Shown: positions 7,589 through 25,242, counted from the first letter of the stretch. The stretch: DNA of 64,000 nt from Candidatus Nomurabacteria bacterium (GCA_021413905.1 JAIOPO010000001.1:73159-137158), one strand, 5' to 3'. A program made the numbers and translations. The notes: generated by a model not told the origin, from the letters alone.

Positions 7589-7596
7589 AAACTTTT

Positions 7597-8355: not shown

Positions 8356-8614
8356 AGATAGAAATTATACTCGGTAGTGAAATTTTTAGCAAAAATTCTA
8401 CTACGGGGTATACACTTAAAGATTTATATAAAACCATTATTACAAATTCCGAAAGTCTCGGTGGTAAATTCGGCTACGCTGTTTTGATTACTCTTATTGG
8501 AGTTATTATATCCATTATTTTAGGTAAAATATTTATTCGCAATAAAAAAATATCCCTTTCAAAAATCGATTAATTTTTTGCATTTTTAAAAATACATGTT
8601 AATATATATTTACT

Positions 8615-8668
8615 GGCCCTATATTTTAACCAAGTTAGAATATAGTGGACATCGCCTTTAAAGGCGAG
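8615..8668 (+). repeat. Degenerate pseudo-copy of the tRNA-Glu 5' half
   Basis: GGCCCTAT...TAAC...GTTAGAA...GGACATCGCCTTTAAAGGCG parallels the intact tRNA-Glu through the anticodon stem (anticodon mutated TTC to TTA); no T-arm. Confidence 0.45.
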
Positions 8669-8710
8669 AGAAATTAAGTTAAAGTTTTGAATTATTTTTG
8701 AAAAATATTC

Positions 8711-8782
8711 GGCCCTATCGTCTAACGGTTAGGACATCGCCTTTTCAAGGCGGTAATCAGAGTTCGATTCTCTGTAGGGTCA
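8711..8782 (+). tRNA. tRNA-Glu (anticodon UUC)
   Basis: GGCCCTATCGTCTAACGGTTAGGACATCGCCTTTTCAAGGCGGTAATCAGAGTTCGATTCTCTGTAGGGTCA; anticodon loop TTTTCAA; T-arm GAGTTCGATTCTC. Confidence 0.85.
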
Positions 8783-10449
8783 CATAAAGCAGAAAAGCGG
8801 TTTTCAAAGCACTCAAACCCTTTTTTGCACTTATAATTCAACGTATTTTGAGAAACAGAAAGTTCTGAAAAGATAACTCTGATGATTTTTTCCTTTTCGT
8901 GTGGTTTTGCGAAATTGTAATATGGTATAACGTTTTTTATGAGTTCTGAAAGTTTTTGAACCTCCTTCATTGTTTCGTGCATAGCGATGTCAGAAATATC
9001 TTCGTCGCTCTTGAGTGCTGAAAGCTCTGCTTCAAGTTTTGTTTCTTCTTCGATGAGTGCTTCTGGTGAATACACGCCCGACTTCAAGAGTGAGAGTTTG
9101 TTTGAGCGTATGTATGCGAGATTTTCTCGAATGGTTTTTTTCTTTCGTTCGAGTTGGTCCAATCCTTTTTGTCGCTTTTCTTCGAGCAGGGCGATGTCTG
9201 TACCGACACGAGCGTCCATAAGCTCGATTTCTTCGTCGGTAAAATACAAACCGTTCATCAGTCCGCCGATTTTCTCATCAATAAACTTGAAATTGAAGTT
9301 CTTGAAAGTATTTTCGCATCCGTTCACGCATCGTGCATTGAAATACTGGATACCTTTCTTGGTGTATGGAGTATAGACACGTTCACAATGTACACAACGT
9401 ACAATGCCTCGAAGTGGTTGGTCGAGTTTTTCCGTATAGTGAACGCTGACTTTCTTCTTTTTGAGTACGGCTTGAACATCGCTAAAAAGCTCGTCGCTAA
9501 CGAGAGCCTCGTGGCTGTTGCTGTGAATATAGTTACCGTCAGGGTCGAGCGTTCTTCCAGTGTAGAAGCGATTTGTAAGTATTCTGCTGACGTGGTTTTC
9601 GGTTAGAGGTCTGGACGTTTTTTCAATTTCATCGAACTCGTCTTCTTCAGCCAGCATTTCTTCTTTTGTTCTTCGTCGTCTCATTGGAACAGTAACCAAA
9701 CCTTGCTCTTTGGCGAAGCGAGCCAAGTCAGAGAGGCTCCAATCTCCCGTAGCGTAGTATTCAAACATCTGCTTGATTATAGGAGCACGTACGGGGTCAA
9801 AAGGCTTATGTTCCATTTCGCCAAGGTTGAGATAGCCGATTGGGGCACGATAGGTACAAATGCCTTTTTCTCGTGAGTTTCGTATGGTGATAGTGACCTT
9901 CTCGCTCGTAACCCGTGAGTGATGCTGTGAGAACATACCGTCGATGTCCATATGCAGAGCACCCGAAGAAGTCTTGTCATATTTTGCATAGACAAAACGA
10001 AAATCAATGCCTTTACGCATTAGCTTTCTAACAAGCGTGTCGTCGCCTTTATTACGACTGATACGGTCCCAACAAAGACACACAACGCCTTTGAAATAGC
10101 CTTGGCTTACAAACTGAAGCATTTTTTGAAACTTGGGTCTGTCGATGCGGTATTGAACCAATCCATCATCGGTGATACTCACGTCATTGTCTTCCGTGAA
10201 GCCAGAGTGCTTTTCTGAAATGATACCGTCGGCACAGAAGCCCTTGATTGTGATTGGTGCGATTAAAAGTTTTTCTTTGTAGGCGTATCGAGTATTTTCA
10301 GTTTTTTGGTATGAAATTGAGTTCTTTTGATTGTCAGCTTCATCGGTGCTTTTTCTGCCGTATAGCAAATAGTGGTCACGGTATTTACCGCTGAGTATTT
10401 CGGCTATCAAATCTTTTTCGGTTTTTATACTCGACTTTTTCATATACAT
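8722..10449 (-). CDS. Large serine recombinase (phage-integrase type, resolvase/invertase catalytic domain plus zinc-ribbon and coiled-coil)
   Basis: 575 aa; N-terminal catalytic Ser motif YGRKSTDEADNQ, a recombinase domain, zinc ribbon CVHCERV...CVNGC and a C-terminal coiled coil; the last roughly 20 codons read through tRNA-Glu. Confidence 0.8.
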   Translation of the reverse strand: MYMKKSSIKTEKDLIAEILSGKYRDHYLLYGRKSTDEADNQKNSISYQKTENTRYAYKEKLLIAPITIKGFCADGIISEKHSGFTEDNDVSITDDGLVQYRIDRPKFQKMLQFVSQGYFKGVVCLCWDRISRNKGDDTLVRKLMRKGIDFRFVYAKYDKTSSGALHMDIDGMFSQHHSRVTSEKVTITIRNSREKGICTYRAPIGYLNLGEMEHKPFDPVRAPIIKQMFEYYATGDWSLSDLARFAKEQGLVTVPMRRRRTKEEMLAEEDEFDEIEKTSRPLTENHVSRILTNRFYTGRTLDPDGNYIHSNSHEALVSDELFSDVQAVLKKKKVSVHYTEKLDQPLRGIVRCVHCERVYTPYTKKGIQYFNARCVNGCENTFKNFNFKFIDEKIGGLMNGLYFTDEEIELMDARVGTDIALLEEKRQKGLDQLERKKKTIRENLAYIRSNKLSLLKSGVYSPEALIEEETKLEAELSALKSDEDISDIAMHETMKEVQKLSELIKNVIPYYNFAKPHEKEKIIRVIFSELSVSQNTLNYKCKKGFECFENRFSALCDPTENRTLITALKRRCPNR

Positions 10450-10697
10450 TGTGGGATTTCCTTTTTACGGATAACACCATCCACGATTTCGTATCCTTCA
10501 GAAACCATACGTTTGTGAATACCTCGGAGTATGTCGCCAAGTTCTTCAAGTGCGTCGAGAGTATCCTTTGAGAGGACGGGGCTTGAGCTTAATGAGGGAC
10601 CACGTGATGATGCTTCGTTGCTACACAAAAGTCCACGTTGCCCCTCGTTAGGTTCAAACTCTGGAGCATCATATTGACCTGTGTGTAGCTCATTCAT
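10440..10697 (-). CDS. Hypothetical small protein immediately upstream of, and overlapping the start of, the recombinase
   Basis: 85-aa ORF in island-type GC context; stop overlaps the recombinase start codon (translational coupling). Confidence 0.3.
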   Translation of the reverse strand: MNELHTGQYDAPEFEPNEGQRGLLCSNEASSRGPSLSSSPVLSKDTLDALEELGDILRGIHKRMVSEGYEIVDGVIRKKEIPQCI

Positions 10698-10711
10698 AAT
10701 AACATTTCTTC

Positions 10712-11350
10712 TTATTTATTCCGACCTTTTGTTTGTGTGTTCAGTTTGTTTTCAGCAATTTTGAACATTTTGTAATTTGTAAAAACCTCCCCGTACATAC
10801 GCTCGATTTTTTTCTGCTTTTTTGTTGGCTCTCCTCGATATGTCTGTCTTTTTGCTTTTTGGCTGAGCTTCTCGATTTCATCGTAGAGTTCAATCGTATG
10901 AAGCAACGGGTAAAGGTGATATTTCTTGTTCACTTTGCGTGAGCTGTATGTGAGTTCGTAGCAATGACGGCATCCAAACCAGTCGCCATCCTTGTAAAGG
11001 ACCCCGACACGGCGACCGCAATACTGACCGTTCTTGCTTAGTGTGCATATAAACCAGTGTCGTGTACCACCAAAGTGGCACGGGCTTTCTACGATTGGGA
11101 CCTTGTAGTCAAAGTCCTTCTTTTCGCCCGTGGCGTTGTCAGTTTGGGTGTATATGAAGCGTGCGTATTTTTCGTCGTCCCAGATGGAGACTTGCACGGA
11201 GACGCTTCCTCTTGAGCCGTTCTCGCCCCAAGAGACAGTTGTGTGTTTATAACCCCCGTATTTTTTGATGTCACGGAGTAGCCACCATATTTCTATTTTC
11301 TTGCACCAGTCTGCTTCAGATTTGCTCATAGTTTTATACGCCGAAATCAA
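10712..11350 (-). CDS. Zinc-ribbon protein (CxxxxC...C...CxxC), hypothetical
   Basis: 212 aa; cysteine cluster SPCHFGGTRHWFIC...CGRRVGVLY...GCRHCYELTYSS. Confidence 0.4.
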   Translation of the reverse strand: MISAYKTMSKSEADWCKKIEIWWLLRDIKKYGGYKHTTVSWGENGSRGSVSVQVSIWDDEKYARFIYTQTDNATGEKKDFDYKVPIVESPCHFGGTRHWFICTLSKNGQYCGRRVGVLYKDGDWFGCRHCYELTYSSRKVNKKYHLYPLLHTIELYDEIEKLSQKAKRQTYRGEPTKKQKKIERMYGEVFTNYKMFKIAENKLNTQTKGRNK

Positions 11351-11391
11351 TAGGAAATCTCACTGTTATCTCCGATTTTCGGCACTTACTT

Positions 11392-11970
11392 TTACAGAAC
11401 GAACCCATTTTCGTTGTCTCCGTTTATATCGACATCAACGGCAATCGGGGGCGTTACCGCTTCGCCCTTTCGCACTGATTGCAGTCGCTGAAGCTCGTGC
11501 AGTGCCTTGTAAAGTCTGTTCTCAATCGCTATTTCATAGCGGAGATAGGTGGTGGAAAGTTTATCGACAGCCTCGTGACCAACGACTGGCGTATAGCCCT
11601 CGTTTTTGACAACGGTTTCCGTAAATGAAATCTCCATCATTGTGTCGTGAACCTCGACCAGTCTGGGGTTAAGAATTGATTGCATATACTCCTTTTCGGA
11701 TTTTGCTACTCTGTACAATTTCAGATAGTACACACCAATACGGTCCACGAGTATTTTTTCGAGTACGCCGACTGGTTGAAATTGAGCATTAAGACGGTCA
11801 GCAATGTCTTGTGAAAAGCTCTGCTCGTAATCCGTCACAGACTCCTTGAAAATACCGTGTTTGATTGCGTTGTATTTGCTCACAGCTTTTCCTTCGTCTG
11901 TTTTTACTCCGCCCTTTTTACCATTTTCACGGTTCGCTTCGAGCTGTTTTGGTGATATTTCTTGGTTCAT
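11392..11970 (-). CDS. Hypothetical protein
   Basis: 192-aa ORF in the island cargo operon; no recognisable motif. Confidence 0.3.
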   Translation of the reverse strand: MNQEISPKQLEANRENGKKGGVKTDEGKAVSKYNAIKHGIFKESVTDYEQSFSQDIADRLNAQFQPVGVLEKILVDRIGVYYLKLYRVAKSEKEYMQSILNPRLVEVHDTMMEISFTETVVKNEGYTPVVGHEAVDKLSTTYLRYEIAIENRLYKALHELQRLQSVRKGEAVTPPIAVDVDINGDNENGFVL

Positions 11971-11990
11971 AATTTGTGTTTTACTTATTG

Positions 11991-13406
11991 TTAAAATGGG
12001 AGCTCGTCGGATGGATTACTGTCTGTATCGACTGCATCGTTCACAACGTTCACGTCGTTCACTTGCTCGCCACGGATGTCAGCATCGGTAATACCAAAAC
12101 GCTCCTTCCACATATCAAGTCGCTTTCTATTTTCCTTGAAAGAGAGCACAAAACCTTTTCGTGTCTTGTAAGGTTTGAGCTGTAATTTTGTGCGGAGATA
12201 CCATCCAACCTTGCGTGCCTGAAGCGTGTCGTCGCTCAAGTCGCTTTCTCTGTTCACTTCGTCCGTAATCTGTTTGACGGTGATTTCGCTGAGCCCTGTT
12301 TGGTGCTCAAGTTTGAGAATGGAGAAGACAATATCGCTTTCCCAAGAAAGCCCTCTGTCAGCCACGAGGTCTGTGTTATATCTGACGATAAATGACTTCA
12401 GGTGCTCTCTAATAGCCTCATCCTTGATGATTGAGAGCAGGGGTATGACAATCTGGTTCAAACGTGGATGGATGCCGTCAATGAGCTCCTCTCGGCGTTC
12501 AATCGGCTCGAAGTAATTTTTAAGTCTCCACATCAGGAGCTTATTTCGGATACGTTCTGCTTCTTTGTAGAAATCTTCGCCAAGAGTGCGTGGGATGTCA
12601 GCTCTCAATTTTCCAGCCCCCATTTCTTCAACAAGAAATCTGCTCTCCAATGCCTTGTCTGAGAACGTCTCACGTGTTGCCACAATTTTGGGACAGAAGA
12701 CATCGTATGCTTTGACCTCGAAAGTGCCTTTGCCCTCGGAGCGAAGAACGGGCATTCCTTTTTGGTATCCAGTGTTCAAAATCTTAACGATTTCAGATGT
12801 CATATCGGAAAACTTGAAGTCTGCCTCGTCGATGATGAGTGTCCCGTGCACTTCGTTTATGATGCGAAATATAGGGCTCGGCGTTGTCGCCCCTCCCGTA
12901 AATACGGGCTTGTAGCACAAGATACCGATTGCCTGTATAAAGCGAGATTTACCGCTTCCAAAGTCGCCAATAGCACGCAAGTACGGGACCTCGTTGAACT
13001 TATCGAACATCCACGTGAACAGCACGTAATAGGTAGCTATCTGCTCGAATACCTCAGATATGTCGAGATACTTGTGTATGAAGGCTTGGATTTCCTTCAG
13101 GATTTCTTCTTCGTTCTCGTATTCCGTAGCAAGAGATGGGAAAAGTATCACTCCTTTTTCTACAAGATTGTACGTTGATGGAAGTGGCTTGTATCTTTTA
13201 CCATCAAGTTGGACCTCGTCGAGGTCGCTTTCAATGGTCCCGTCTCGGCTTATTTTTACGAACGAACTTTTGTGTGCCGTGTCGTCGTATACCATTTCAT
13301 ACAATGCGTCTGGGGTAACGATGGAAGTTTTGAGAATTGGTTTCTCGTTTTCATTTTCATTTTTCATATGCGTGGCAGGATTATTTGTAATTCTTACGCA
13401 TACCAA
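11991..13406 (-). CDS. P-loop NTPase (Walker A GDFGSGKS, Walker B LIIDEAD); possible plasmid/phage replication or primase-associated ATPase
   Basis: 471 aa; Walker A and B motifs clearly present; likely real start at Met14 (13367); N-terminal and C-terminal extra domains. Confidence 0.5.
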   Translation of the reverse strand: MVCVRITNNPATHMKNENENEKPILKTSIVTPDALYEMVYDDTAHKSSFVKISRDGTIESDLDEVQLDGKRYKPLPSTYNLVEKGVILFPSLATEYENEEEILKEIQAFIHKYLDISEVFEQIATYYVLFTWMFDKFNEVPYLRAIGDFGSGKSRFIQAIGILCYKPVFTGGATTPSPIFRIINEVHGTLIIDEADFKFSDMTSEIVKILNTGYQKGMPVLRSEGKGTFEVKAYDVFCPKIVATRETFSDKALESRFLVEEMGAGKLRADIPRTLGEDFYKEAERIRNKLLMWRLKNYFEPIERREELIDGIHPRLNQIVIPLLSIIKDEAIREHLKSFIVRYNTDLVADRGLSWESDIVFSILKLEHQTGLSEITVKQITDEVNRESDLSDDTLQARKVGWYLRTKLQLKPYKTRKGFVLSFKENRKRLDMWKERFGITDADIRGEQVNDVNVVNDAVDTDSNPSDELPF

Positions 13407-13719
13407 AAATGCGAGACTTTAGGTTCTTGCGAGCGTTCGCAAAATCAAGAGGGCTGACCGTGATTTTGTTGGACCAGTATCCATCGACCACGGCTCCCAA
13501 TTCAGGACTGCTATTGAACACGAACAGCAATTTTCCGCCTCGCTCGGCATCAATCGTGACGAGGGGGTGTCCCTTGCAGATGAGTGTTACCGAAAGGTCG
13601 AAGTCGGTTGAATAAAAATAGTTTTTCCAATCATCGAGTGGAATGTACTGATAATCGCTACTGTCTTTCACTGGCACTGTATTGAACTTGTCGCTCTGGG
13701 TATGTTTATTCATACGCAT
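13381..13719 (-). CDS. Hypothetical protein
   Basis: 112-aa ORF between the TPR gene and the ATPase gene on the same strand, overlapping the ATPase start. Confidence 0.3.
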   Translation of the reverse strand: MRMNKHTQSDKFNTVPVKDSSDYQYIPLDDWKNYFYSTDFDLSVTLICKGHPLVTIDAERGGKLLFVFNSSPELGAVVDGYWSNKITVSPLDFANARKNLKSRIFGMRKNYK

Positions 13720-13823
13720 ATATATTTATTCTTACTAATGCGAGGGTTTCGTGCCCTCAGGGTCAATTAGAATAAATCCTCTTTTTCAAGGGCAATGCGT
13801 TTCGAGGTAGAGGAAAAGAACAG

Positions 13824-13850
13824 CAAAAAAGCCTTATCAATAAAGGCTTA
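13824..13850 (-). terminator. Rho-independent terminator downstream of the TPR gene (minus strand)
   Basis: On the minus strand: hairpin AAGCCTTTATTGATAAGGCTT followed by TTTTTTGCTG. Confidence 0.45.
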
Positions 13851-13897
13851 AAATGCTTTCCTCTTAATATGCGGACATTATTCCTCTTTCCTCCCGC

Positions 13898-16153
13898 TTA
13901 TTTTTTAGCTAATTTCAGAGAGACAACCTCATCTCTTTCATTAAAAACAAGACTAACCCTTACTTTCTTCTTTCGGAGTGTCTCTTGTAGTTCTTTGATG
14001 CGTGTACGCAAAATATCTTGCTTTTGGGCTGTGCTAAGTGACTCAGTTTTGAACTTAGAACGGTCCGAAGATGATGTGTTAAAAATGGCATTTATAGCTT
14101 TAGCTTGTCCTAGTGGACAGAGTGCTTCCAGTAGCTTGAAAGGAATGTTTTTTGCAGGACCCACTTCAATTTTTCCTCCATCCAAAAGGAAGTAGCCTGT
14201 TCCATTCTCAACAATCGTCTGGGGCGTTTTGACCGCAACGATTTTTGGCTTCTGTATTTGTGGCTTTGACTGGCTTGTTTCGGTTTTTTTGCCTTTATCA
14301 GAAAATATGCGATTATAGTTTCTCTCAACAACCTCATCGTTTGTACTGTTTTCTTTGGCTTTTTTTATCAGCTCTTTTGCTTTTTCGATGTCTCCTTCTT
14401 TTTCATAGATGATGGCAAGATTATTAAGTGCCGACGACGAGTTCGGGCGTGTCTCAAGATGTGCCTCATAGACTATCTTCGCATTCTTGTCGTCACCGCA
14501 TTCACGCAACGAGTATGCGAGTTCAAAAAGCCCTGTTTCTGACTTTCCGTAAACAAAGTTCTCTCCGATAGAAGCGAGGTTGTTTATATTTGGTTTGACG
14601 TACTCATAGAGACTTTTTACAGATTGAAACTTCTTTTTCTCATACAGAGCTTCAACGTCTTCGGCAAATTGATATTCGATATAATCTTCGACTGAAACGC
14701 CGTAATTATCCACAGCATCTTCCAATACGCTCGTGTATGTATCGAGAAATCCATCGGTGGCATCACTCATTTTTACTTGCAGAGAAAAGAATATCTGGCT
14801 ACTACTAACACCTTCGATTGCACGCAATTTGTATCGTAGGGAGTTATCGTAATCTTTTTTAAGATATAGTAGATTTGAATAGGTGGCATTAAACATCTTA
14901 TCGTCAGGATAATAATCCAACGCCTCCTTCAATGTACCCTCTGCCTCTTTGAGCGTTTTCTTTTCTGACACTGTCAGAGCTCGGACTGGCTTATCATCAT
15001 AAGGAGTTGGCAAAGTAGAAGCCTGTATGTACGCCAATAGTCCTTTTATTCTCGTCTTCAGCATTTCATCAACCTTAAGTTTCAAAATACTTTTGAGCGT
15101 TTTTTCAGCTAAGTCTGCGTAATCAAAATCCAGTGGATACTCAACCCTTAGTTCCTGATGGCATAATTTTGCACTTTCAATAATATCCTTTATTTCAGGG
15201 ATATTTTTCGTTTTTGCATAACAAGCTAAGAGATAATAGTAACTCGCTTGCGTATCGTCCGTGTCACGAATGGTAAGAGCAATAGCGTCTCTGAAATACT
15301 GTGTGGCTTTTTCGTAATCTCCTTTTTCAAAATAAAATCTTCCTTTAAGGAGACTGTCCGTCGATTTATTAAAAATGGTTGTGCCAAGTATTTTTTCTGC
15401 ACTCGGAAAGTCTTTTTGAGCAGTCAAAAGTTTTATCACTGTGACCTTCAAATGAGGGTATCCGTGGGTCCAGTTTTGTTTCGGTATTTTCGACACGGCT
15501 GTCTCAAAAAAAGCTCGTGCCTCTTTGAGCTTTCCTTTTTTAAGAAAGTCATTCACCACAAAATCAATGAAGTACTCATCTCCGTCTTTTGGAAATAATT
15601 TCAACGCCTTTTTGGCAATATCTATTTTTCTTATCTTGTCATTCTCGTGCCTAAATAATTCAGAAAAAAAATCAGACGAAACATCCTCACAACCAATTGC
15701 ATCATAGAGACGGTGTACGGCTATATCAGAGCTTTCAAAAAGATTATGTTTGGAAAGAAGCCAATACGGCAAAGCTGACCGTGGCTTTTTTTTGTCACTA
15801 AAATCAAAAAAACTACCAGTGTCATCCTTTATCGCCAAGTCGAGATATTCTTTAGCTTTTTCTCGGTATTTTTTATCTTCATCAATTAGGGTAATGTAGC
15901 ACCATCCAACGATTGTAGCTTCCTTCTTTGACAGTGTTACTTTTGAGACAATGATTTCTTTTTTGAACTCTTTTTTCTGATGGTCGGTAATTTTAAGATA
16001 GAGTTTTACTTGCTTTTCATCCTCTTCGATTTTTTCAACCTCGGCATCGTAATATGCGTTCTTTGCTTTTGAGGCAACATCAACCAGCCCAAAAGTTTGA
16101 GCTGTTTTGGCACCAAAACGTATGGTTTCTTTTCCGTCGAGAAATCTTCGCAT
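13898..16153 (-). CDS. Large TPR-repeat protein, hypothetical; first gene of the island minus-strand operon
   Basis: 751 aa; multiple TPR-like helical repeats (for example ALNNLAIIYEKEGDIEKAKELIKKA and GRFYFEKGDYEKATQYFRDAIAL); basic C-terminal tail. Confidence 0.5.
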   Translation of the reverse strand: MRRFLDGKETIRFGAKTAQTFGLVDVASKAKNAYYDAEVEKIEEDEKQVKLYLKITDHQKKEFKKEIIVSKVTLSKKEATIVGWCYITLIDEDKKYREKAKEYLDLAIKDDTGSFFDFSDKKKPRSALPYWLLSKHNLFESSDIAVHRLYDAIGCEDVSSDFFSELFRHENDKIRKIDIAKKALKLFPKDGDEYFIDFVVNDFLKKGKLKEARAFFETAVSKIPKQNWTHGYPHLKVTVIKLLTAQKDFPSAEKILGTTIFNKSTDSLLKGRFYFEKGDYEKATQYFRDAIALTIRDTDDTQASYYYLLACYAKTKNIPEIKDIIESAKLCHQELRVEYPLDFDYADLAEKTLKSILKLKVDEMLKTRIKGLLAYIQASTLPTPYDDKPVRALTVSEKKTLKEAEGTLKEALDYYPDDKMFNATYSNLLYLKKDYDNSLRYKLRAIEGVSSSQIFFSLQVKMSDATDGFLDTYTSVLEDAVDNYGVSVEDYIEYQFAEDVEALYEKKKFQSVKSLYEYVKPNINNLASIGENFVYGKSETGLFELAYSLRECGDDKNAKIVYEAHLETRPNSSSALNNLAIIYEKEGDIEKAKELIKKAKENSTNDEVVERNYNRIFSDKGKKTETSQSKPQIQKPKIVAVKTPQTIVENGTGYFLLDGGKIEVGPAKNIPFKLLEALCPLGQAKAINAIFNTSSSDRSKFKTESLSTAQKQDILRTRIKELQETLRKKKVRVSLVFNERDEVVSLKLAKK

Positions 16154-16233
16154 ATTTATTTACATTTGCATTACCTAATTCACGTTGTAACCATTGAGAA
16201 CGTTGTGAATGTCGTGTATAATAATGGTAGCAA

Positions 16234-16452
16234 ATGTTAGGTATGAAATCAACGCATAAATCGCCGAAAAACAAAGAGGATTTACCTGAACTCTTAACTT
16301 TGGAAGAAGCCTCAGCTTATTTGAAGTGTCACCCGAACACGCTTCGACAATGGGACAAAAAAGGCATACTCGTCGCTCTCCGATTTGGAGCACGTCGAGA
16401 TAGAAAATATCGCAAGGATGCTATTATGAAAATGTTAGAACAAAAAATATGA
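16234..16452 (+). CDS. Excisionase/AlpA-like HTH DNA-binding protein (candidate recombination directionality factor or controller)
   Basis: 72 aa; LLTLEEASAYLKCHPNTLRQWDKKGIL matches the MerR-superfamily excisionase-type HTH; first gene of the plus-strand operon upstream of mod. Confidence 0.55.
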   Translation: MLGMKSTHKSPKNKEDLPELLTLEEASAYLKCHPNTLRQWDKKGILVALRFGARRDRKYRKDAIMKMLEQKI

Positions 16453-16514
16453 AAACATAGATAATTATTACAATTTAATTTGCCTAACCCTCGTCAGAGG
16501 CACGGCACAAAACC

Positions 16515-16650
16515 CCCACCACAGTAAAGAACTCCTCGTTAGAGTCTTACCTGTGGTGGGTCGTATTGGGAAACTGGTACGGGTGGCGAAAGCCACCGAG
16601 CTTTAGCGGGGAGCTTTTTGTTCTCCGTAAGCATAAAAAACCCACCACAA
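16515..16650 (+). promoter_or_regulatory. Structured leader between the HTH gene and mod: CCCACCACAG inverted repeat (16515-16524 and 16551-16560), GNRA hairpin GGTGGCGAAAGCCACC (16582-16597), third CCCACCACA copy (16641-16649)
   Basis: Read directly from the sequence; an 11-bp perfect inverted repeat ACCCACCACAG/CTGTGGTGGGT with a 27-nt spacer, and a direct copy of the same decamer just before the mod start. Confidence 0.35.
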
Positions 16651-18939
16651 ATTATGCAAAAAATACAATCGGCTGAAAAAGCCAAAGGAGGTTCTCTTTA
16701 TATCTCCGACAATGAAAAACGAGACATCATAAAATACTTGGAGGCAGGAAAACCCCTCCCAGAAAAATATCGCTTTTTACTTTTTAAGGATGACCGTGAG
16801 GTCGAGCTTGTTTGGAATGGAAAAACAAACGAAGTTACGAACGTGGTCCTGCCGTTTCAAGTCATTGAACAAATTGATGAGCCACGAGAAGGCAAAGAGT
16901 TTGGCGATGGTGGAACACTTTTTGATACATCAGGAAAACAAATAACAGGCTGGACCAACAAGCTTATCTGGGGCGACAATAAGCTCATTCTTTCGTCTCT
17001 GAAAAATGGACCTCTCCGAAAGGAAATCGAGGCACAGGGTGGCTTGAAGCTAATTTACATCGACCCGCCTTTTGACGTAGGTGCTGATTTTTCTATGGAC
17101 ATTACGATTGGTGACGACGACGAAGGAGAAAACTTCACGAAGAAACCTTCAGTAATTGAAGAAATCGCTTACAGAGACACTTGGGGTAAAGGAGCTGATA
17201 GCTTTATTTCAATGATATATGAGCGTTTGAAAATAATGTACGATTTACTCGCAGAAGATGCGAGTATCTATGTCCACTGCGACTGGAGAGTGAACGGCTA
17301 TATGAGACTGATTTTGGATGAAGTTTTTGGTAAGGATAATTTTCAAAACGAAATTGTTTGGCAAAGATTTGGTGCTCACAATGATGGAAAAAAATATGGT
17401 GTTGTCACAGATACAATTTTCTATTACAGCAAATCTTCTTCAAGGATTTACAACCAACAAACTGAACCGTACACAGAGGAATACATAAAAGAAAGATTTA
17501 CGATGCAAGACCCCGATGGTCGCCGTTTTTATCCTAACGTTATGACAGGAAAAGGCTCTGGACCTGCAAGAATATTTCGTGGTGTTTTGCTTACTCCTTC
17601 AAAAGGACGACACTGGACATATACCCAAGACGGAATTGACGAGCTTGAAAAACAAAATCGGATTTACTATACAAAAGAAGGAACCCCGTGCTTAAAGCAG
17701 TACTTGGATGAATACCTCGGTAGACCAGTTCAAAACTTATGGAGTGATATTTTTATGACAAAAAGTGGCTCTGAGCTTCTAGGTTACCCGACCCAGAAAC
17801 CTGAGGAGCTACTTACTAGAATAATAAAAACTTCAACTAACGAAGGTGACCTAGTCGCTGATTTTTTCTGTGGTTCAGGAACGACACTTGCCGTTTCAGA
17901 AAAACTTGGCAGAAAATGGGTCGGCTCGGACTTGGGTAAGTTTGGAATACACACTTCACGCAAACGATTGATTGGGGTACAACGTGAGCTTAAAAAACAA
18001 GGAAAAGATTTCAGAGCTTTTGAGATACTCAATGTGGGTAAATATGAAAGAGAGAGCTTCTTAGGAACAAATGATAATTTACGAGCTGAGGAGAAAATTA
18101 AACAAGCAGAAAGAAAAGAACGAGATTTTATAAATCTTATTTTGTCCGCATATAAAGCTGAACCCGTCGAGTCATTCATAAACGTTGTCGGTAAAAAGCG
18201 TGACCGACTCGTCGCCATCGGTCCTATCAATCTGCCCGTGTCGTCCAAGTTCATTCAAGAAATTGTGGCTGAGTGTCGAGAAAAAGGACTTTCAAAAATC
18301 GACGTGCTCGGCTTCGATTACGAAATGGGAATGAACTTTGAAGAATACAAAGACGACGGTATTGACGTTGCATTCAAAATCATTCCCCGTGAAGTATTTG
18401 ATAAGCGAGCAGTTGAACGAGGTCAGGTTAATTTCTATGACGTTGCATATATCAACGTGAAGCCGATAACGCAAGGTAGAGGTAATATAAAAGAACTCTC
18501 AATCGAGCTCACAGATTTTTCTGTTTTCTACAATCAAGATACTGGTGCAATCGACGAAGAACTAAAAGGTGGTAGGTCCAAAGTGATTGTTGAAAATGGT
18601 CAGGTTATAAAAGTCACAAAAGACAAAGATACTGACATCGTTTCAAGAGAAATCCTTACGAAAAAATGGAGCGACTGGATTGATTACTGGGCGGTGGACT
18701 ATGACTTCGCCAATCGAAAAGAAATCATCAAAGTATTGGAGGGCGATGTTGAAAAAGAAGTATGGACGGGCGACTATATTTTTGACAACGAGTGGCAGAG
18801 CTTCCGAACAAAGAAAAATCGAAATCTTGAGTTTGTGTCTGCACCAAAAGAATTACAAAAAGGAGAATACAAAGTTGCGGTAAAGGTCGTCGATATTTTC
18901 GGCAATGACACTACCAGAGTAATTGACGTGAAAATATAA
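16618..18939 (+). CDS. mod: Type III restriction-modification Mod subunit (N6-adenine DNA methyltransferase)
   Basis: 773 aa; catalytic DPPF/DPPY-type motif (LIYIDPPFD), AdoMet-binding FFCGSGTT motif and a long C-terminal extension; the second ATG at 16654 is the more likely start. Confidence 0.85.
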   Translation: MFSVSIKNPPQIMQKIQSAEKAKGGSLYISDNEKRDIIKYLEAGKPLPEKYRFLLFKDDREVELVWNGKTNEVTNVVLPFQVIEQIDEPREGKEFGDGGTLFDTSGKQITGWTNKLIWGDNKLILSSLKNGPLRKEIEAQGGLKLIYIDPPFDVGADFSMDITIGDDDEGENFTKKPSVIEEIAYRDTWGKGADSFISMIYERLKIMYDLLAEDASIYVHCDWRVNGYMRLILDEVFGKDNFQNEIVWQRFGAHNDGKKYGVVTDTIFYYSKSSSRIYNQQTEPYTEEYIKERFTMQDPDGRRFYPNVMTGKGSGPARIFRGVLLTPSKGRHWTYTQDGIDELEKQNRIYYTKEGTPCLKQYLDEYLGRPVQNLWSDIFMTKSGSELLGYPTQKPEELLTRIIKTSTNEGDLVADFFCGSGTTLAVSEKLGRKWVGSDLGKFGIHTSRKRLIGVQRELKKQGKDFRAFEILNVGKYERESFLGTNDNLRAEEKIKQAERKERDFINLILSAYKAEPVESFINVVGKKRDRLVAIGPINLPVSSKFIQEIVAECREKGLSKIDVLGFDYEMGMNFEEYKDDGIDVAFKIIPREVFDKRAVERGQVNFYDVAYINVKPITQGRGNIKELSIELTDFSVFYNQDTGAIDEELKGGRSKVIVENGQVIKVTKDKDTDIVSREILTKKWSDWIDYWAVDYDFANRKEIIKVLEGDVEKEVWTGDYIFDNEWQSFRTKKNRNLEFVSAPKELQKGEYKVAVKVVDIFGNDTTRVIDVKI

Positions 18940-18942
18940 CAT

Positions 18943-21627
18943 ATGGCACTACACAAAGATTTTCCACGGGACCCATACGCAATACTCAATCCTGAAATCA
19001 GGTGGTTTCCTGCCGACGAGGACCTTCGAGAAAAAGGATTTGAAAAGCTTATTCCACCTCTCGTTGCTGAACTCCGTAAAAAAGTGAAAGAATGGCGAGA
19101 CGAAAATTACGAAGGAGCAAGTGAGACATCGAAGACGCTTCTGACGTGGTGGTTCAAAGAAGAACACATCCTCTACAACAAGGACGGCTCGTCATACCCA
19201 TTCAGGTACTACTTCTCGCAAAGAGAGGCTCTGGAGACGGTTGTGTGGCTCTACGAGGTCGCTAAAGTGAAGGATAAGTACGACTTGATACGCTACAATT
19301 CGACGGGCGTTCTCAGTCCTCAAATGTTTACTGAAGAATGGCTCCGATTTGTCATAAAAATGGCGACAGGGGCGGGCAAAACGAAAGTGATGAGTTTGGT
19401 GATTGCGTGGGCTTATTTCCATAAACTTTACGAAGCAGACTCACGCCTCGCAAAAAACTTTTTACTGATTGCTCCGAACGTTATCGTTTTTGAGAGAATA
19501 AAAAATGACTTTGAGGGAAACAAGATATTTTTCTTGGACCCTGTGCTACCTGACAACGGATATATGGGGCAGAATTGGCAGGATGACTTTCAGGTCACTC
19601 TGCATCTTCAGGACGAACTCAGAAATGTATCCGATACAGGAAACATCTTTCTCACCAACATCCATCGAGTTTTTGAAAGTGATGTTCAGGATTTCAGTGC
19701 TGAAGATGAAGATAGTTCAGGATACTTTCTTGGTGACAAGCCTGTATCCAAAACAAGCGACTCGATGGTGGACTTGGGAATGGTCATCCGTGACATCGAC
19801 GAACTCATCGTTATCAACGACGAAGCACATCACATTCACGAAGAAAATGCGTGGCTTAAATCTATCCGTGACATCGACAACAAACTAAAACAGAAAGGTG
19901 GTGGGCTTGCTCTGCAACTGGACGTTACAGCAACACCAAAGAAAAAAGACGGGTCCATTTTCGTGCAGACGATTTCAGACTATCCTTTGGTCGAGGCAAT
20001 CCACCAGCGAGTAGTCAAAAATCCAGTCGTCCCAGACGAAGCGAGTCGTGGCAAATTGAAGCCGAACCAGAGCACGCTTTTCAGCGAAAAATACAGAGAT
20101 TACATCAATCTTGGTGTTGAGGAATGGAAGAAAACATACGTACAGCTTGAGCCGACTGGAAAGAAATCTCTGCTTTTCATAATGACTGACGACACAAAAA
20201 ACTGTGACGAGGTTGCTGAGTATTTGGAAACGAGCTTTGCTGATTTGAAAGGGGCGGTCCTTGTCATTCACACAAATCAAAGTGGAGAAATATCTGAGAG
20301 CACTTCGGGTAAGAAAAAAGAGGAACTTGAACAGCTCCGAAAACAAGCAAATGACATCGACAGTTGGGATAGTCCGTACAAAGCTATCGTCTCCGTTATG
20401 ATGCTCAAAGAAGGTTGGGATGTGAAGAACGTCACCACTATTGTCGGATTGCGTCCTTATGCTTCCGACTCAAAAATCCTCCCAGAACAGACGCTCGGAC
20501 GAGGTTTACGAAGAATGTATTTCGGTAGGGACGATATTGATGAGTACGTCAGTGTCATTGGAACCCCTGCGTTTATGGACTTCGTTGAGTCAATCAAAGG
20601 CGAAGGTGTGCTCCTTGAAAAGCGACTTATGGGTGGCGGTTCAAAGCCGATTTCTCCAATGGTTATCGAAGTAGACAAGGAAAACGAAACGAAGGACATC
20701 GAAAAACTGGATATTGAAATCCCAGTAATGACGGCACGCATACAGCGAGAGTATAAAAATCTCGCAAACTTAGATGTATCGACTTTCGGTAATCAAAAAG
20801 CAAAAGTAAAAACTTTCAGTGAGCAAGAAAAGCGAGAAATCGTTTTCAAAGATGTTGTGGCTGAGGAGGTTCATCACACGACCATTCTCACTGGCGACAT
20901 CGAGCCGAACTATCAGAGCGTTGTCGGCTTCTTCGCTCAGGCAATTATGCGTGAGATGCGATTGTTCGGTTGCTACGACATTTTGTTCGGGAAAGTGAAG
21001 GACTTTGTTGAAAATCATATGTTTGAAAGTAACGTGCAACTCACTGACTTGAATGTCCTTCGTAATCTATCAGAAGTTGAGTACATAAAGCTCATCAAAG
21101 ATGAGTTCAAAAAAGCTATTAACGAACTCACGGTGCAAGACAAGGGAGACACCGAAATCAAGAACTACATCAAGGTGAGCGATGCCCGACCTTTCGTGGT
21201 AAACGACAAGTCATTCCTTATTCCACACAAATCCGTGTTCAACAAAATCGTCGGTGACAGCAATCTTGAGCTTGAGTTTTCTGCCTTTCTTGAAAAATGC
21301 GATGATATTATTTCATACGCAAAAAACTTCCAAAACAAGGAGGCAAACGCCCTTCGTATTGAATACAAGAACAGCGATGGCTTCATCGCTACGTATTATC
21401 CCGATTTCTTCGTGAAGAAAAATGATAAGGAGGTCTTTATCGTTGAAACAAAAGGCAGAGAGGAGGAAGACGATAAAATAAAGTTCGAGCGATTGAAAAA
21501 GTGGTGTGCGGATGTGAACGAACGCCAAAGTCGAGTCGTTTACAAAGCATTATATGTTCAGCAAGAAGACTACGAAAAAAATACAGCCAAAAACTTCGAT
21601 GAACTCGTACGGCTCTTTAGTAAATAG
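18943..21627 (+). CDS. res: Type III restriction enzyme Res subunit (SF2 helicase plus PD-(D/E)xK endonuclease)
   Basis: 894 aa; helicase motif I MATGAGKT, motif II NDEAHH and a C-terminal nuclease YPDFFV...FIVETKG; starts 4 nt after mod. Confidence 0.85.
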   Translation: MALHKDFPRDPYAILNPEIRWFPADEDLREKGFEKLIPPLVAELRKKVKEWRDENYEGASETSKTLLTWWFKEEHILYNKDGSSYPFRYYFSQREALETVVWLYEVAKVKDKYDLIRYNSTGVLSPQMFTEEWLRFVIKMATGAGKTKVMSLVIAWAYFHKLYEADSRLAKNFLLIAPNVIVFERIKNDFEGNKIFFLDPVLPDNGYMGQNWQDDFQVTLHLQDELRNVSDTGNIFLTNIHRVFESDVQDFSAEDEDSSGYFLGDKPVSKTSDSMVDLGMVIRDIDELIVINDEAHHIHEENAWLKSIRDIDNKLKQKGGGLALQLDVTATPKKKDGSIFVQTISDYPLVEAIHQRVVKNPVVPDEASRGKLKPNQSTLFSEKYRDYINLGVEEWKKTYVQLEPTGKKSLLFIMTDDTKNCDEVAEYLETSFADLKGAVLVIHTNQSGEISESTSGKKKEELEQLRKQANDIDSWDSPYKAIVSVMMLKEGWDVKNVTTIVGLRPYASDSKILPEQTLGRGLRRMYFGRDDIDEYVSVIGTPAFMDFVESIKGEGVLLEKRLMGGGSKPISPMVIEVDKENETKDIEKLDIEIPVMTARIQREYKNLANLDVSTFGNQKAKVKTFSEQEKREIVFKDVVAEEVHHTTILTGDIEPNYQSVVGFFAQAIMREMRLFGCYDILFGKVKDFVENHMFESNVQLTDLNVLRNLSEVEYIKLIKDEFKKAINELTVQDKGDTEIKNYIKVSDARPFVVNDKSFLIPHKSVFNKIVGDSNLELEFSAFLEKCDDIISYAKNFQNKEANALRIEYKNSDGFIATYYPDFFVKKNDKEVFIVETKGREEEDDKIKFERLKKWCADVNERQSRVVYKALYVQQEDYEKNTAKNFDELVRLFSK

Positions 21628-21660
21628 TAAATCTGGTGAACTTGTGAACATTGTGACTAT

Positions 21661-21843
21661 ATGGAGCTCTCACAGAACGCACGGGACGACCTCAGAAAGG
21701 TCCTCGTAAATGACATCGGTCCCAAAGCCACGAGCGATATGACTGAGGAGGACTTGGACCACATCGGGTCCTTATTACTGACGGTACTAGCCGAGAGCTT
21801 GAAAATGAAAGCGAATGAAGCAATCAGAACTCAGAAAAAATAG
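21661..21843 (+). CDS. Hypothetical small protein
   Basis: 60-aa ORF in island GC context, downstream of res. Confidence 0.2.
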   Translation: MELSQNARDDLRKVLVNDIGPKATSDMTEEDLDHIGSLLLTVLAESLKMKANEAIRTQKK

Positions 21844-21929
21844 TGACTGGACGGAGGATGAAAAAAGAAATATAGTTGGTTTCTTCGCCTTGCTTTTTAA
21901 GGTTGATAGACGTGTAAATCCACACCTAT

Positions 21930-22529
21930 ATGAAAAAAACAAAAATAGTAATAGACGAGGAAAGAAAGCTCAGAAACATCACTGACTATGTTTTTGATTG
22001 CACTAGCCGTCTCTACGAGCACGCTGATTTGCTTTTGTATCTAGGTAAACATAAAGATGATTTTGTGGAGCCTGTCTCAAAAAATAGTATGTCGATTATT
22101 GTCTCAATTTTCGATGTGTACTCACGAGACGCAATAATAATGCTGAATATCCTTATTGATAAGGACGACAGAACCTCGTCTCTCACGACTCTCGTCAATC
22201 ACGTTACGGACCCGAAGAAACACAAGCGATACCTCGCTCGACTAAAGAAGCTAAAAGCTGAGTTGAACGGGCTTGTTCAAGCGAGAGCAAATCAAGTTGC
22301 TCATTTCAACACCCACAACAACATTCACGAAAATGGATTTATGCAGGTCAATCAAATAATTCAACTCGACCCACGATATTTGAAGCGAATAACGAAGAAA
22401 ATTGAAAACCTGATGTTTGACCTAAAAGAAGAACTCTCCATCGACGGTGCCTTTATTTTTCATAAAGGCGAGCGTCTCGCTCATTCATTTGCTCGACTTA
22501 TCGGTAAGCCGATTAAGCTGAAACCATAA
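21930..22529 (+). CDS. Hypothetical protein (last island gene)
   Basis: 199-aa ORF with island-type GC; no recognisable motif. Confidence 0.35.
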   Translation: MKKTKIVIDEERKLRNITDYVFDCTSRLYEHADLLLYLGKHKDDFVEPVSKNSMSIIVSIFDVYSRDAIIMLNILIDKDDRTSSLTTLVNHVTDPKKHKRYLARLKKLKAELNGLVQARANQVAHFNTHNNIHENGFMQVNQIIQLDPRYLKRITKKIENLMFDLKEELSIDGAFIFHKGERLAHSFARLIGKPIKLKP

Positions 22530-22675
22530 GAGCATTGAGATTTTCTACAGCTAAAGCTATATATTCTCGCTTGTTTACCAGTTCTGAAAGCCATACAATA
22601 GGGTCACCAATTCGTGCTAGCTCGAGAAGCATACAAAAATAGCCTAATTTGAATATGATGTGTTGATATTTATTT

Positions 22676-25180: not shown

Positions 25181-25242
25181 ACTTATATTTTATAATATTT
25201 TTGATAAAATAAAAAGTGGTCTTTTTGGGACCACCTTTTTAA

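Follow-up and report, generated by a model that had tools for sequence, protein, structure and literature searches.

An integrative element at the tRNA-Glu gene of a Candidatus Nomurabacteria genome carries its attachment site within its own large serine recombinase gene

Overview

The window analysed here is a 64-kb stretch of a metagenome-assembled genome of Candidatus Nomurabacteria (Patescibacteria; GCA_021413905.1 JAIOPO010000001.1:73159-137158). Our analysis indicates that positions 8784-22607 represent one copy of an integrative element, composed of a backbone and variable cargo, which was inserted into the 3' end of tRNA-Glu(UUC) by its own large serine recombinase (LSR) and has its attP within the LSR gene. 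We give this reading a probability of roughly 0.85, based on the observed boundaries, empty site, reconstituted open reading frame (ORF), family-wide pattern and domain content.

Boundaries and empty sites

Both edges of the island are marked by a short repeat and by a step in base composition. The following features define them:

8711-8783, + strand: tRNA-Glu(UUC), the integration target, complete in attL (ARAGORN, anticodon ttc; Rfam RF00005, 61.7 bits)
8775-8783, unstranded: attL copy of the common core TAGGGTCAC (3' strand of the acceptor stem, discriminator A, then C)
22599-22607, unstranded: attR copy of the core TAGGGTCAC (repeat search; Logan contig L002 begins exactly at 22599)
22608-22644, + strand: host DNA, the conserved tRNA-Glu trailer, displaced 13.8 kb from the tRNA (trailer comparison)

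The GC content is 0.419 in the island (8784-22598) and 0.314 outside it (left flank 0.312, right flank 0.315). Counted in 1-kb intervals, the mean is 0.421 within the island (minimum 0.364, n = 26) and 0.315 elsewhere (sd 0.034, maximum 0.383, n = 97), and at a resolution of 200 nt the change is located at about 8.8-9.0 kb on the left and 22.5-22.6 kb on the right. The insert together with one repeat copy measures 13,824 bp. The core TAGGGTCAC occurs exactly twice in the 64 kb, once at each island edge, while the expectation from shuffling is 0.07 and two copies were reached in 0 of 100 shuffles. Its shorter version GGGTCAC, searched on both strands, is confined to the same two sites within the window; comparison of family members reduces the core to GGGTCAC or AGGTCAC, with a core length of 7-10 bp. 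A preliminary description of this DNA had already named the tRNA-Glu at the left edge, an abrupt GC change at both edges and the 9-bp repeat, and all three hold under ARAGORN and Rfam, the quantitative GC profile and the shuffling, respectively. The insert belongs to the genomic islands at tDNAs: the tDNA at its left edge is complete, the 3' end of this tDNA is repeated at the right edge, and a recombinase gene lies in between.

Empty sites are found in related genomes. In L097 (GCA_964596595.1) the tRNA-Glu is followed by CCA(A/T)TTCGTGCTAGC... and then by the same Nhi gene as in the window (83% amino acid identity), and the island-deleted window is collinear with this locus and aligns without gaps across the junction. 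L093 has left-flank synteny with the window, and the 37 nt directly behind its tRNA-Glu match 22608-22644 with 94.6% identity; each of these two sites is thus syntenic with the window on one flank only. Seven further metagenome contigs carry the first 23 nt of core and trailer directly after tRNA-Glu. All of them join the flanks exactly at the repeat. The trailer itself begins with the CA that completes the encoded CCA, continues as ATTCGTGCTAGC(T/A)CGAGAAGCATAC..., and directly follows an intact tRNA-Glu in 8 of 9 metagenome contigs as well as in L097. The arrangement predicted earlier for an unoccupied site, with tRNA-Glu running directly into the sequence right of 22607, is therefore present in L097 and also matches L093, and the proposal of a site-specific integration with attL at the tRNA 3' end and attR at 22599-22607 is fully supported. 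Strand exchange would have taken place inside the shared core TAGGGTCAC (GGGTCAC across the family), so that the insertion would keep the tRNA-Glu complete and move its original trailer to 22608 onward.

The source sample points in the same direction. Three contigs of a Logan assembly of SRR15633504 match the window without a difference (7539-8783, 8755-22628 and 22599-25836), one of their overlaps measuring 29 nt and not 30 nt, and the flank contigs end exactly at the repeat edges. A de Bruijn graph would break at precisely these edges if filled and empty alleles coexist, and judging from the contig ends the sampled population seems polymorphic; the attB junction of its empty allele would, on the same contig ends, read ...TCTCTGTAGGGTCACCAATTCGTGC.... 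The island contig runs unbroken through 8775 and 22607, which indicates that circular molecules were not abundant in that sample.

One may still argue that the 9-bp repeat is a coincidence and the true boundaries lie elsewhere, because LSRs need only a 2-bp crossover and a repeat is hence not required by the mechanism. We consider the chance of this negligible: the repeat is unique in the window, the Logan contigs break exactly at it, and boundaries elsewhere are refuted by the empty-site junctions and by the 586-aa reading frame restored exactly across the repeat.

The recombinase gene and its attachment site

The two parts of the recombinase gene lie at opposite ends of the island:

8722-10449, - strand: large serine recombinase, integrated form, 575 aa (Pfam PF00239, PF07508; PHROG 95 integrase, 9e-56)
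22513-22598, - strand: native C-terminal tail cut off from the LSR gene (IVWLSELVNKREYIALAVENLNALMVSA and a stop codon), sharing the reading frame of the core (586-aa ORF on joining)

The last 62 nt of the integrated gene (8722-8783) are antisense to tRNA-Glu and supply 20 codons and the stop, so residues ~556-575 (TENRTLITALKRRCPNR...) are encoded by the tRNA antisense strand. Joining 22607 to 8784 gives an in-frame LSR ORF of 586 aa that ends CDPIVWLSEL..., its C-D-P linker being encoded by the core. In the integrated state 31 native codons are left at attR and the 20 tRNA-antisense codons stand in their place. Moreover, homologs of the detached tail form the intact C-termini of P0040, P0075, P0100, P0105 and relatives in other phyla. 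On this sequence comparison, attP lies within the 3' end of the LSR gene, integration would rewrite the C-terminal tail of the enzyme, and only excision as a circle would reunite the detached tail with the gene. The free circle would encode the 586-aa protein with the C-D-P linker and a conserved helical tail; once integrated, the gene would run into the opposite strand of the tRNA and end with 20 unrelated residues, leaving the native tail codons at attR. The preliminary description rightly saw a large serine recombinase reading through about 60 nt of the tRNA (we find Resolvase and Recombinase domains and 62 antisense nucleotides) but treated this as incidental; it is instead the signature of an attP inside the recombinase gene.

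The domain content is that of an LSR. The catalytic domain (PF00239, Resolvase, 1.5e-14) contains the serine nucleophile, and R32, S34, D36, Q41 and D128-R129-x-S131-R132 are invariant in 18 homologs. It is followed by the Recombinase domain (PF07508, 4.4e-13) and then by a zinc ribbon with an inserted coiled coil, in which the cysteines C352, C355, C374 and C378 are invariant among homologs. In the AF2 model of the homolog P0040 (76% identical), long helices occupy 403-511, and its full-length Foldseek matches are solved serine-integrase complexes (9y66, 9dxh) and the LI (4kis), phiC31 and Bxb1 integrases (E from 5e-14 to 1e-9), by which the predicted fold is confirmed as that of a serine integrase. 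LSRs recombine attP and attB through a 2-bp staggered cut and require a directionality factor for excision. Inspection of the att sites revealed neither dyad symmetry nor a central dinucleotide, and the right arms of attB differ among hosts and are unrelated in sequence.

The arrangement is shared widely. The LSR ORF ends inside tRNA-Glu in about 40 of 80 related genome loci, and nearly all related loci at tRNA-Glu are binned to Patescibacteria. Of the best 120 LSR homologs, 80 end in a tRNA-antisense tail and 14 in a native one. The same core with an in-frame tail remnant at attR is found in L010, L011, L016 and L018, and all complete elements examined keep the tail reading frame open at attR. 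In L051 a similar match was rejected as an attR remnant, since it represents the unbroken tail of a second LSR in tandem. Complete related elements measure 8-10 kb, and with the window island the sizes span 8-14 kb. The element is one of a large family whose LSR gene spans its own attachment site.

The island could nevertheless be a fixed, immobile remnant, that is, the product of a single integration whose LSR is inactive with its foreign tail and which is now plain chromosome. Consistent with this, the attP junction has no match in IMG/VR, the Logan island contig is unbranched at its own ends, and the integrated LSR is missing the tail, which is conserved across phyla. However, the LSR has an uninterrupted ORF and retains its catalytic residues, the detached tail keeps an open and conserved frame, and the flank contigs ending at the core point to a coexisting empty allele. 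The base composition is also unameliorated (0.42 against 0.31), in contrast to 25 related loci where element and host sides are alike. A remnant is thus unlikely, and the integrative element may still be mobile at present.

Conserved backbone

Besides the LSR, five genes on the same strand make up the backbone:

10440-10697, - strand: 85-aa protein, LSR partner (its stop overlaps the LSR start by 10 nt)
10712-11350, - strand: Cys-rich backbone protein, 212 aa (205 aa in the Logan gene call), collinear in 22-23 loci
11392-11970, - strand: backbone protein, 192 aa, collinear in 13 loci
11991-13406, - strand: P-loop NTPase with C-terminal winged helix, putative replication helicase or initiator (motifs)
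13381-13719, - strand: DUF5659 backbone protein (Pfam PF18903, 3e-7), collinear in 15-16 loci

Their order (DUF5659, the P-loop replicase-like protein, two uncharacterised proteins, the 85-aa partner, LSR) is collinear in at least 13 related loci. No other partner of the LSR is conserved as widely as the 85-aa protein: in 62 of 80 loci a tblastn match lies immediately upstream of the LSR (E < 1e-5), and 42 of these matches span at least half the length of the protein. It has no family match in Pfam, PHROG or NCBIfam, and no member of a directionality-factor family was recognised in the island; given its position and conservation, the protein is a candidate accessory or directionality factor.

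The P-loop NTPase (458 aa in NCBI, K8Q94_00515) possesses a Walker A motif GDFGSGKS and a Walker B motif LIIDEAD. Its homologs, found in 18-21 loci in all, are 60-87% identical in the loci listed, and two of them (P0192 and P0198; 81-82% identical) have Prim-Pol and PriCT_1 fused at the N-terminus, while a Prim-Pol domain is absent from the window element by Pfam. In the AF2 model the ATPase core is of poor quality, and a search by fold recognised no helicase fold and gave only a weak winged-helix match. The Walker motifs and the fusions in homologs suggest that the protein is replicase-like, and the excised circle may replicate.

Variable cargo

The remaining genes of the island are variable cargo:

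13898-16153, - strand: TPR-repeat protein, 751 aa (Pfam TPR families)
16234-16452, + strand: HTH_17/MerR-type small DNA-binding protein (Pfam PF12728; PADLOC mad1, 7.5e-7)
16618-18939, + strand: type III restriction-modification (R-M) methyltransferase, Mod (Pfam N6_N4_Mtase, 4e-40; PADLOC MTase_III, 2e-110)
18943-21627, + strand: type III R-M restriction subunit, Res (Pfam ResIII and endonuclease domain; NCBIfam BPTD_3080, 1.6e-82; PADLOC REase_III, 4.5e-20)
21661-22529, + strand: two ORFs of 60 aa (21661-21843) and 199 aa (21930-22529), called in the Logan contig

Mod adjoins the Res helicase-nuclease, and this type III R-M system is variable cargo of the element. The TPR protein has only two weak homologs among the related loci, and the two right-end ORFs gave no matches in family-profile searches, PHROG and NCBIfam included. 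The HTH_17 gene, 165 nt upstream of mod, had been proposed as the likely directionality factor, which our survey contradicts: homologs occur in only 5 of 80 related loci (L005, L019, L028, L030 and L039), each time with a Mod homolog within a few hundred bp, and none is present in the complete 8-10 kb elements. The gene travels with the R-M system and not with the recombinase, and its product is probably a regulator of the R-M module.

The gene content also bears on whether the island is a prophage, a phage remnant (as formerly suggested) or a phage satellite packaged into virions, and not a plasmid-like element. The LSR does match PHROG 95 'integrase', and phage satellites resemble the element in the 8-14 kb size and the layout of integrase plus replicase. 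Against this, PHROG matches are limited to the integrase and the HTH protein, the LSR being the only backbone protein matched, and backbone and cargo have none to structural, packaging or lysis families (no capsid, tail, terminase, portal or lysis genes). In IMG/VR, 2.9 million contigs were scanned without finding an LSR relative, and the attP junction is missing there as well. A phage origin is accordingly quite improbable, and what the island presents instead is a six-gene backbone with a replicase-like ATPase. The earlier remark that conjugation genes of ICEs are lacking agrees with our Pfam/NCBIfam search, which found no relaxase, coupling protein or type IV secretion genes. On these families the island is not classed as an ICE or IME, although the five backbone ORFs that have no family assignment might include a novel relaxase.

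Comparison with known elements

The closest precedent is the ssrA islands of Dehalococcoides, in which the 3' end of dsiB always overlaps attL and DsiB is suggested to be perhaps fully functional only on the circle (McMurdie et al. 2011, PMC3146451). Both are serine-recombinase islands at the 3' end of a tRNA or tRNA-like gene. In both, the recombinase ORF extends across attL into the RNA gene used as target, the end of that gene recurs as a short direct repeat at the far boundary, a conserved reverse-strand multi-gene module adjoins attL, and tandem arrays occur in the family. They differ in target (tRNA-Glu here, ssrA or tmRNA there), in core length (7-10 bp against 20 bp) and in host phylum, and by Pfam the window island lacks a second small serine recombinase (DsiA) and a ParB- or Mom-like gene; the likeness lies in the arrangement of the islands. 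The native tail is reconstructed and shown to be conserved here, whereas it was only conjectured for DsiB. We also noted that a 15-bp motif beside the Dehalococcoides repeat, TTCAGRSMGMRKCCA, resembles TTCTGAAAGCCA here, which is no more than a lead.

SSV1-type integrases of archaeal fuselloviruses and integrative plasmids likewise have attP inside the integrase gene, which is partitioned by tRNA integration so that the full ORF exists only in the episome. These are archaeal tyrosine recombinases, much of which is cut off by the split, while in the serine recombinase here no more than the 31 residues of the terminal tail are exchanged for a tRNA-encoded peptide. The phage integrases phiC31, Bxb1, A118/LI and SPbeta share the domain architecture and fold, a short core and otherwise unrelated attB and attP arms. 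However, these enzymes target protein-coding genes or intergenic sites and have attP outside the int ORF, and the window island is devoid of phage genes.

Serine-family integrases were not known to target tRNA genes according to a 2014 survey (PMC4383910). The tDNA islands of tyrosine integrases (Islander signature) are similar in the intact tDNA at one end and displaced 3' fragment at the other, the integrase gene adjoining the tDNA and cargo such as defence genes. The only recombinase of the window island is of the serine family, so it falls outside the Islander definition, which involves a tyrosine integrase, and, owing to a crossover at the extreme 3' end of the tRNA, its displaced fragment is no longer than 9 bp. 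Tn4451, whose recombinase TnpX is an LSR, is a transposon-like element with loose target choice, and the joint of its circular form creates a promoter that changes recombinase gene expression; here the circle joint restores coding sequence instead. Prim-Pol/helicase replicons (pRN1-type and integrative plasmids) are comparable as small integrative elements with a P-loop ATPase, fused to Prim-Pol/PriCT_1 in close homologs, but the window copy has no Prim-Pol domain and its ATPase only a weak fold match.

Possible role of the tail swap

The overlap of attP and LSR gene may be mere genome compaction, the native tail being dispensable and the tRNA-tailed enzyme working equally in both directions given a directionality factor; we rate this at slightly below even chances. 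In the AF2 model of P0040 the tail (WLSEL...) is a predicted terminal helix that follows a low-confidence linker, outside the catalytic, recombinase and zinc-ribbon/coiled-coil domains. Its distal half is variable, selection on the detached tail is weakly detectable (pN/pS ~0.6 over roughly 25 codons), and the tRNA-encoded tails vary in length, some stopping after 10 residues. On the other hand, the motif WLSEL...Y-I..[AS][IV]..L is kept in relatives from Bacteroidota, Verrucomicrobiota, Acidobacteriota and Kordiimonas whose genes are unsplit, and stays open at attR in the complete elements.

A more speculative idea, which we regard as possible but on the whole doubtful, is that the tail swap acts as a built-in state switch, such that LSR activity or directionality would differ between the integrated and the excised form. 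If so, an LSR with the conserved helix would come only from the circle and one with a tRNA-encoded peptide from the chromosome, and the enzyme would 'know' its integration state. For instance, integration competence might be restricted to the 586-aa form, or re-excision might be locked unless the 85-aa partner is present. On this reading, the family's tolerance of unrelated attB right arms would explain tandem accretion at attL, and the family would represent a broad-host integrase targeting tRNA-Glu for the genetically intractable Patescibacteria.

Boundaries and occupancy of the integration site

The abrupt change in composition reported in the preliminary description is real and sharp: the GC content is 0.419 in positions 8784-22598, against 0.312 in the left and 0.315 in the right flank within the 64-kb window, and in 1-kb windows it reaches a maximum of 0.383 outside the island and a minimum of 0.364 inside. 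The 9-bp repeat proposed for the two edges is likewise confirmed, as TAGGGTCAC occurs exactly twice in the 64-kb window (chance expectation 0.07). The features that define the two edges are as follows.

8711-8783, complete tRNA-Glu(UUC) gene (ARAGORN and Rfam)
8775-8783, first copy of the repeat, the attL core
8722-10449, minus strand, large serine recombinase (LSR), a 575-aa ORF with Resolvase and Recombinase domains
22599-22607, second copy of the repeat, the attR core
22513-22806, minus strand, 97-aa ORF spanning attR
22676-24169, plus strand, full-length Nhi/AbiO anti-phage nuclease-helicase (PADLOC, E 7.5e-155), the first host gene right of attR

That the boundaries lie at the 9-mer follows from three independent lines of evidence, namely empty sites in other genomes, synteny of the flanks and contig breaks. 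A scan of JGI metagenomes with the core and the first 14 nt to its right matched nine contigs, and in eight of the nine this sequence directly follows an intact tRNA-Glu. One relative's contig (L093) is syntenic with the left flank over window positions 4008-6816, including TsaD, followed by tRNA-Val and tRNA-Glu; the 37 nt after the latter match 22608-22644 at 94.6% identity. In another empty site (L097, GCA_964596595.1), tRNA-Glu is directly followed by the right-flank spacer of the window and then by a homolog of the gene bordering the island on the right (83% aa identity). The alignment of L097 with the island-deleted window is gapless at the junction; the uninterrupted reading from tRNA-Glu into the right flank that the preliminary description had predicted for an empty site is thus found.

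Three contigs in the Logan assembly of SRR15633504 are identical to the window; they span 7539-8783, 8755-22628 and 22599-25836. The left flank contig ends with the final base of the left repeat and the right one begins with the first base of the right repeat; in a k=31 graph, such breaks require a second sequence that shares the 30-mers of the flanks and differs at 8784 and 22598. Judging from these contig ends, an empty allele coexisting in the sample would have exactly the required property. The island contig passes unbranched through both cores into host sequence, and circular molecules are therefore too scarce in this sample to branch the graph. No match to the attP junction was found in an IMG/VR scan, and an exact-protein lookup of the window LSR in the assembly index returned no record, the Logan gene call being cut by the contig end. 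We conclude that the element is real and precisely bounded, and that it is probably still mobile.

Integration exchanges the C-terminal tail of the recombinase

The 3' end of the LSR ORF lies 62 nt inside tRNA-Glu on the opposite strand. When position 22607 is joined to 8784, as in the excised circle, the reading frame is extended in phase to 586 aa and ends in ...CDP-IVWLSELVNKREYIALAVENLNALMVSA, with C-D-P encoded by the core itself. Hence attP is located within the LSR gene, and integration swaps the C-terminal tail of the recombinase. The stranded tail provides the end of the 97-aa ORF at 22513-22806, which starts in host DNA; this ORF is a junction artefact that an annotator could mistake for a gene. 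We also considered a second, older island lying right of attR and rejected it, because no additional core copy or tail remnant is present anywhere in the window; the shorter core GGGTCAC has no further copy on either strand. The AT-rich patches at 46-48 kb and 58-61 kb contain ordinary protein-coding genes of the host.

More than 800 LSR homologs were detectable, and the best 120 of these (62-87% identical) were used to define tail classes. Tails antisense to a tRNA are found in 80 of the 120, for example ...CDPT(E/G)NRT..., where ENRT or GNRT is the T-loop read backwards. Fourteen carry a native-type tail, ...DP(I/T)AWLSEL... followed by an amphipathic segment, the class to which the reconstructed tail of the window belongs, and 26 have other or truncated endings. 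The WLSEL-type tail is also intact in relatives from Bacteroidota, Verrucomicrobiota, Acidobacteriota and the isolate Kordiimonas aestuarii, with no tRNA adjoining, and therefore represents an old, conserved part of the LSR protein. These full-tail relatives (L027, L045, L048, L056, L060, L061, L063 and L066-L077) are 55-70% identical, and no homologs of the island's backbone proteins were found in the three checked (L027, L056 and L060). A third recurrent C-terminus, ...C(E/D)E(I/L)(I/L)T(L/F)ARTYF(E/Q)..., neither tRNA-antisense nor WLSEL, occurs in the homologs P0076, P0025, P0062 and P0093 and at loci L034 and L039; it possibly marks where a different family of elements adjoins. L039 is a closed Nomurabacteria chromosome in which a distant second LSR intervenes and tRNA-Glu is reached only after another 5 kb.

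P0040, a homolog with native tail and 76% identity to the window LSR, was modelled with AF2 (pLDDT 74.5). The model has the domains usual for LSRs, with the C-D-P region as a low-confidence linker and the tail as a terminal helix (residues 563-583). Foldseek aligned this model over its full length with solved serine integrases (E down to 5e-14).

According to the mechanism we propose, the circular element would express the full 586-aa LSR, which would recombine the attP contained in its gene with an attB at the very 3' end of tRNA-Glu. In the integrated state the tRNA is kept through ...GGGTCAC, its encoded CCA and conserved trailer are displaced to 22608 onward, and the LSR gene finishes in tRNA-antisense codons to give the 575-aa form. 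The other three tRNAs in the window have no encoded CCA, so the host must add CCA enzymatically. We place the probability of this structural account of the island, its integration and the tail swap at about 0.85. The pN/pS ratio of detached tails is about 0.6, from sites too few and too saturated for a firm conclusion, and a promoter and terminator scan around attL gave nothing above chance. That the tail swap is a genuine regulatory switch seems rather doubtful to us; the alternative that the overlap of attP and LSR is a functionally neutral compaction has a little under an even chance.

Target use across the family

Among 80 loci fetched from GTDB species representatives, the LSR ORF ends inside tRNA-Glu (UUC or CUC) in about 40, nearly all of them binned to Patescibacteria, and inside tRNA-Ala, tRNA-Val or tRNA-Ser in a few. 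The island belongs to a large, undescribed family of LSR elements targeting tRNA-Glu in Patescibacteria; no description of this LSR family was found in literature searches. Four loci (L010, L011, L016 and L018) contain the whole element (8.3-10.3 kb) within the fetched flank, and its far end consists of the core repeat followed by an in-frame tail remnant. A tail match in L051 was rejected as attR, being the intact tail of a second, tandem LSR. In some elements the core identity block narrows to GGGTCAC or AGGTCAC, which locates the crossover within these bases. Right of the core, arms from different hosts are unrelated. Dyad-symmetry scoring for the central dinucleotide on the reconstructed attB and attP of five elements yielded random-level scores.

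Tandem arrays of related elements occur at tRNA-Glu in L018 (cores at 2171 and 1320), L051 and L085, and their inner LSRs have an intact native tail supplied by the end of the neighbouring element. Such arrays imply that attL or attR took part in recombination, an unusual event for LSRs. Combined with the lack of constraint on the right arm of attB, they point to attL as a possible target for newcomer elements.

Several contigs of the LSR family (L062, L022 and L024) are binned as Pseudomonadota or Gammaproteobacteria MAGs. The tRNA-Glu arrangement is present in L062 and L022, and L062 carries Mod and Res genes 72-81% identical to those of the window. These are probably mis-binned Patescibacteria contigs; alternatively, they reflect wider transfer.

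The tRNA-Glu 3' flank as an apparent hot spot

The Nhi/AbiO gene at 22676-24169 has a host-like GC content of about 0.29. Because Nhi also adjoins tRNA-Glu in the empty site L097, a defence gene is present in the tRNA-Glu 3' flank also where the island is absent. In L096 (1-50; Logan SRR12762311), the same core and a similar spacer lie ahead of a Nhi gene 96% identical to that of the window, and the sequence left of the core, neither tRNA nor WLSEL, is possibly the end of a different element at the same site.

In many Patescibacteria, tRNA-Glu is extended by an encoded CCA, after which comes a conserved trailer, ATTCGTGCTAGCACGAGAAGCATAC (window 22608-22644; L087-L095 and L097). It holds a 14-nt palindrome, TCGTGCTAGCACGA, often with a terminator hairpin after it, and is conserved across species with differing tRNA stems; in the window copy, a T for A breaks the palindrome. 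Upstream of tRNA-Glu, at about 8623-8700 on the plus strand, lies a tRNA-Glu-like fragment (GGCCCTAT... then GGACATCGCCTTTAAAGGCG), which resembles the acceptor 5' strand and anticodon arm without a T arm. The fragment starts about 88 nt before tRNA-Glu. Its folding is strong (z = -4.0), Rfam gives no match to it, and it is conserved in L089 and L094, again upstream of tRNA-Glu. The reverse complement of L089 (1667-1960) also shows tRNA-Glu(CUC), a 194-nt scrambled insert with inverted tRNA 3'-end pieces, and a second core and trailer; the insert looks like a scar of past insertions at the same hot spot.

Backbone, cargo and nature of the element

The element has a collinear, same-strand backbone of DUF5659, a 471-aa, a 192-aa, a 212-aa and an 85-aa protein, with the LSR last. 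This backbone is complete in at least 13 loci; the 85-aa gene overlaps the start of the LSR and was detected in 42-62 of the 80. The 471-aa protein has Walker A and Walker B motifs and is 60-87% identical across the elements listed; in two of its homologs (81-82% identical), Prim-Pol and PriCT_1 are fused ahead, an architecture typical of plasmid and viral primase-helicase replicases. The AF2 model of this ATPase was poor (pLDDT 60, core <50) and gave only a weak winged-helix match in Foldseek; sequence searches of the LSR and the ATPase against PDB chains gave no match. The five backbone proteins received no assignment in PHROGs, NCBIfam or PADLOC, and no LSR relatives were found in IMG/VR. 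Based on the replicase-like backbone protein and the lack of PHROG matches for the backbone and of LSR relatives in IMG/VR, we read the element as integrative, non-viral and probably self-replicating; a phage-satellite lifestyle is conceivable.

The cargo comprises:

a TPR protein gene
an operon of HTH_17 (at 16234), Mod and Res, a Type III R-M system

The HTH_17 gene had been suggested as the likely recombination directionality factor, a role that its distribution does not support: homologs occur in five loci only, each with a Mod homolog a few hundred bp off, and are absent from the complete small elements. The 85-aa partner of the LSR is a better, though unproven, candidate.

Across 25 related loci, element-side and host-side GC are similar (means 0.405 vs 0.417), and the element is richer in only nine. 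A GC excess as a general family trait was hence rejected, and the step in the window is specific to this host-element pair. The 0.10 excess thus marks a recent arrival from a GC-richer donor.

Relation to known systems and significance

Partitioning of an integrase gene by integration is otherwise a hallmark of the SSV1-type tyrosine integrases in archaea. The closest precedent is provided by the Dehalococcoides ssrA islands, in which, according to their authors, the 3' end of the serine recombinase gene dsiB invariably overlaps attL; the authors wondered if DsiB is fully functional only on the circle (PMC3146451). The present system differs in that it targets a true tRNA, lacks a DsiA partner, belongs to a different phylum and has a demonstrable native tail.

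Serine-family integrases targeting tRNA genes were said to be unknown in the Islander paper of 2014 (PMC4383910); the present family shows that LSRs can specialise on a true tRNA gene. It is a large family: public data contain over 800 homologs of the recombinase and over 1,300 of the replicase-like protein. Its attachment sites are now defined exactly, its backbone is conserved and its defence cargo is interchangeable. Mobile elements have been little mapped in Patescibacteria (CPR), and tools for manipulating these bacteria genetically are few. For genome engineering with such enzymes, the reconstructed attP/attB pair could be of interest, as could the acceptance of unrelated right arms in attB. 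The island is also the clearest sequence-level case so far of an LSR gene that extends across its own attP and whose product is consequently edited on integration. Directionality control of serine integrases is usually ascribed to a separate factor, and a self-editing C-terminus, if true, would therefore constitute a new layer of control.
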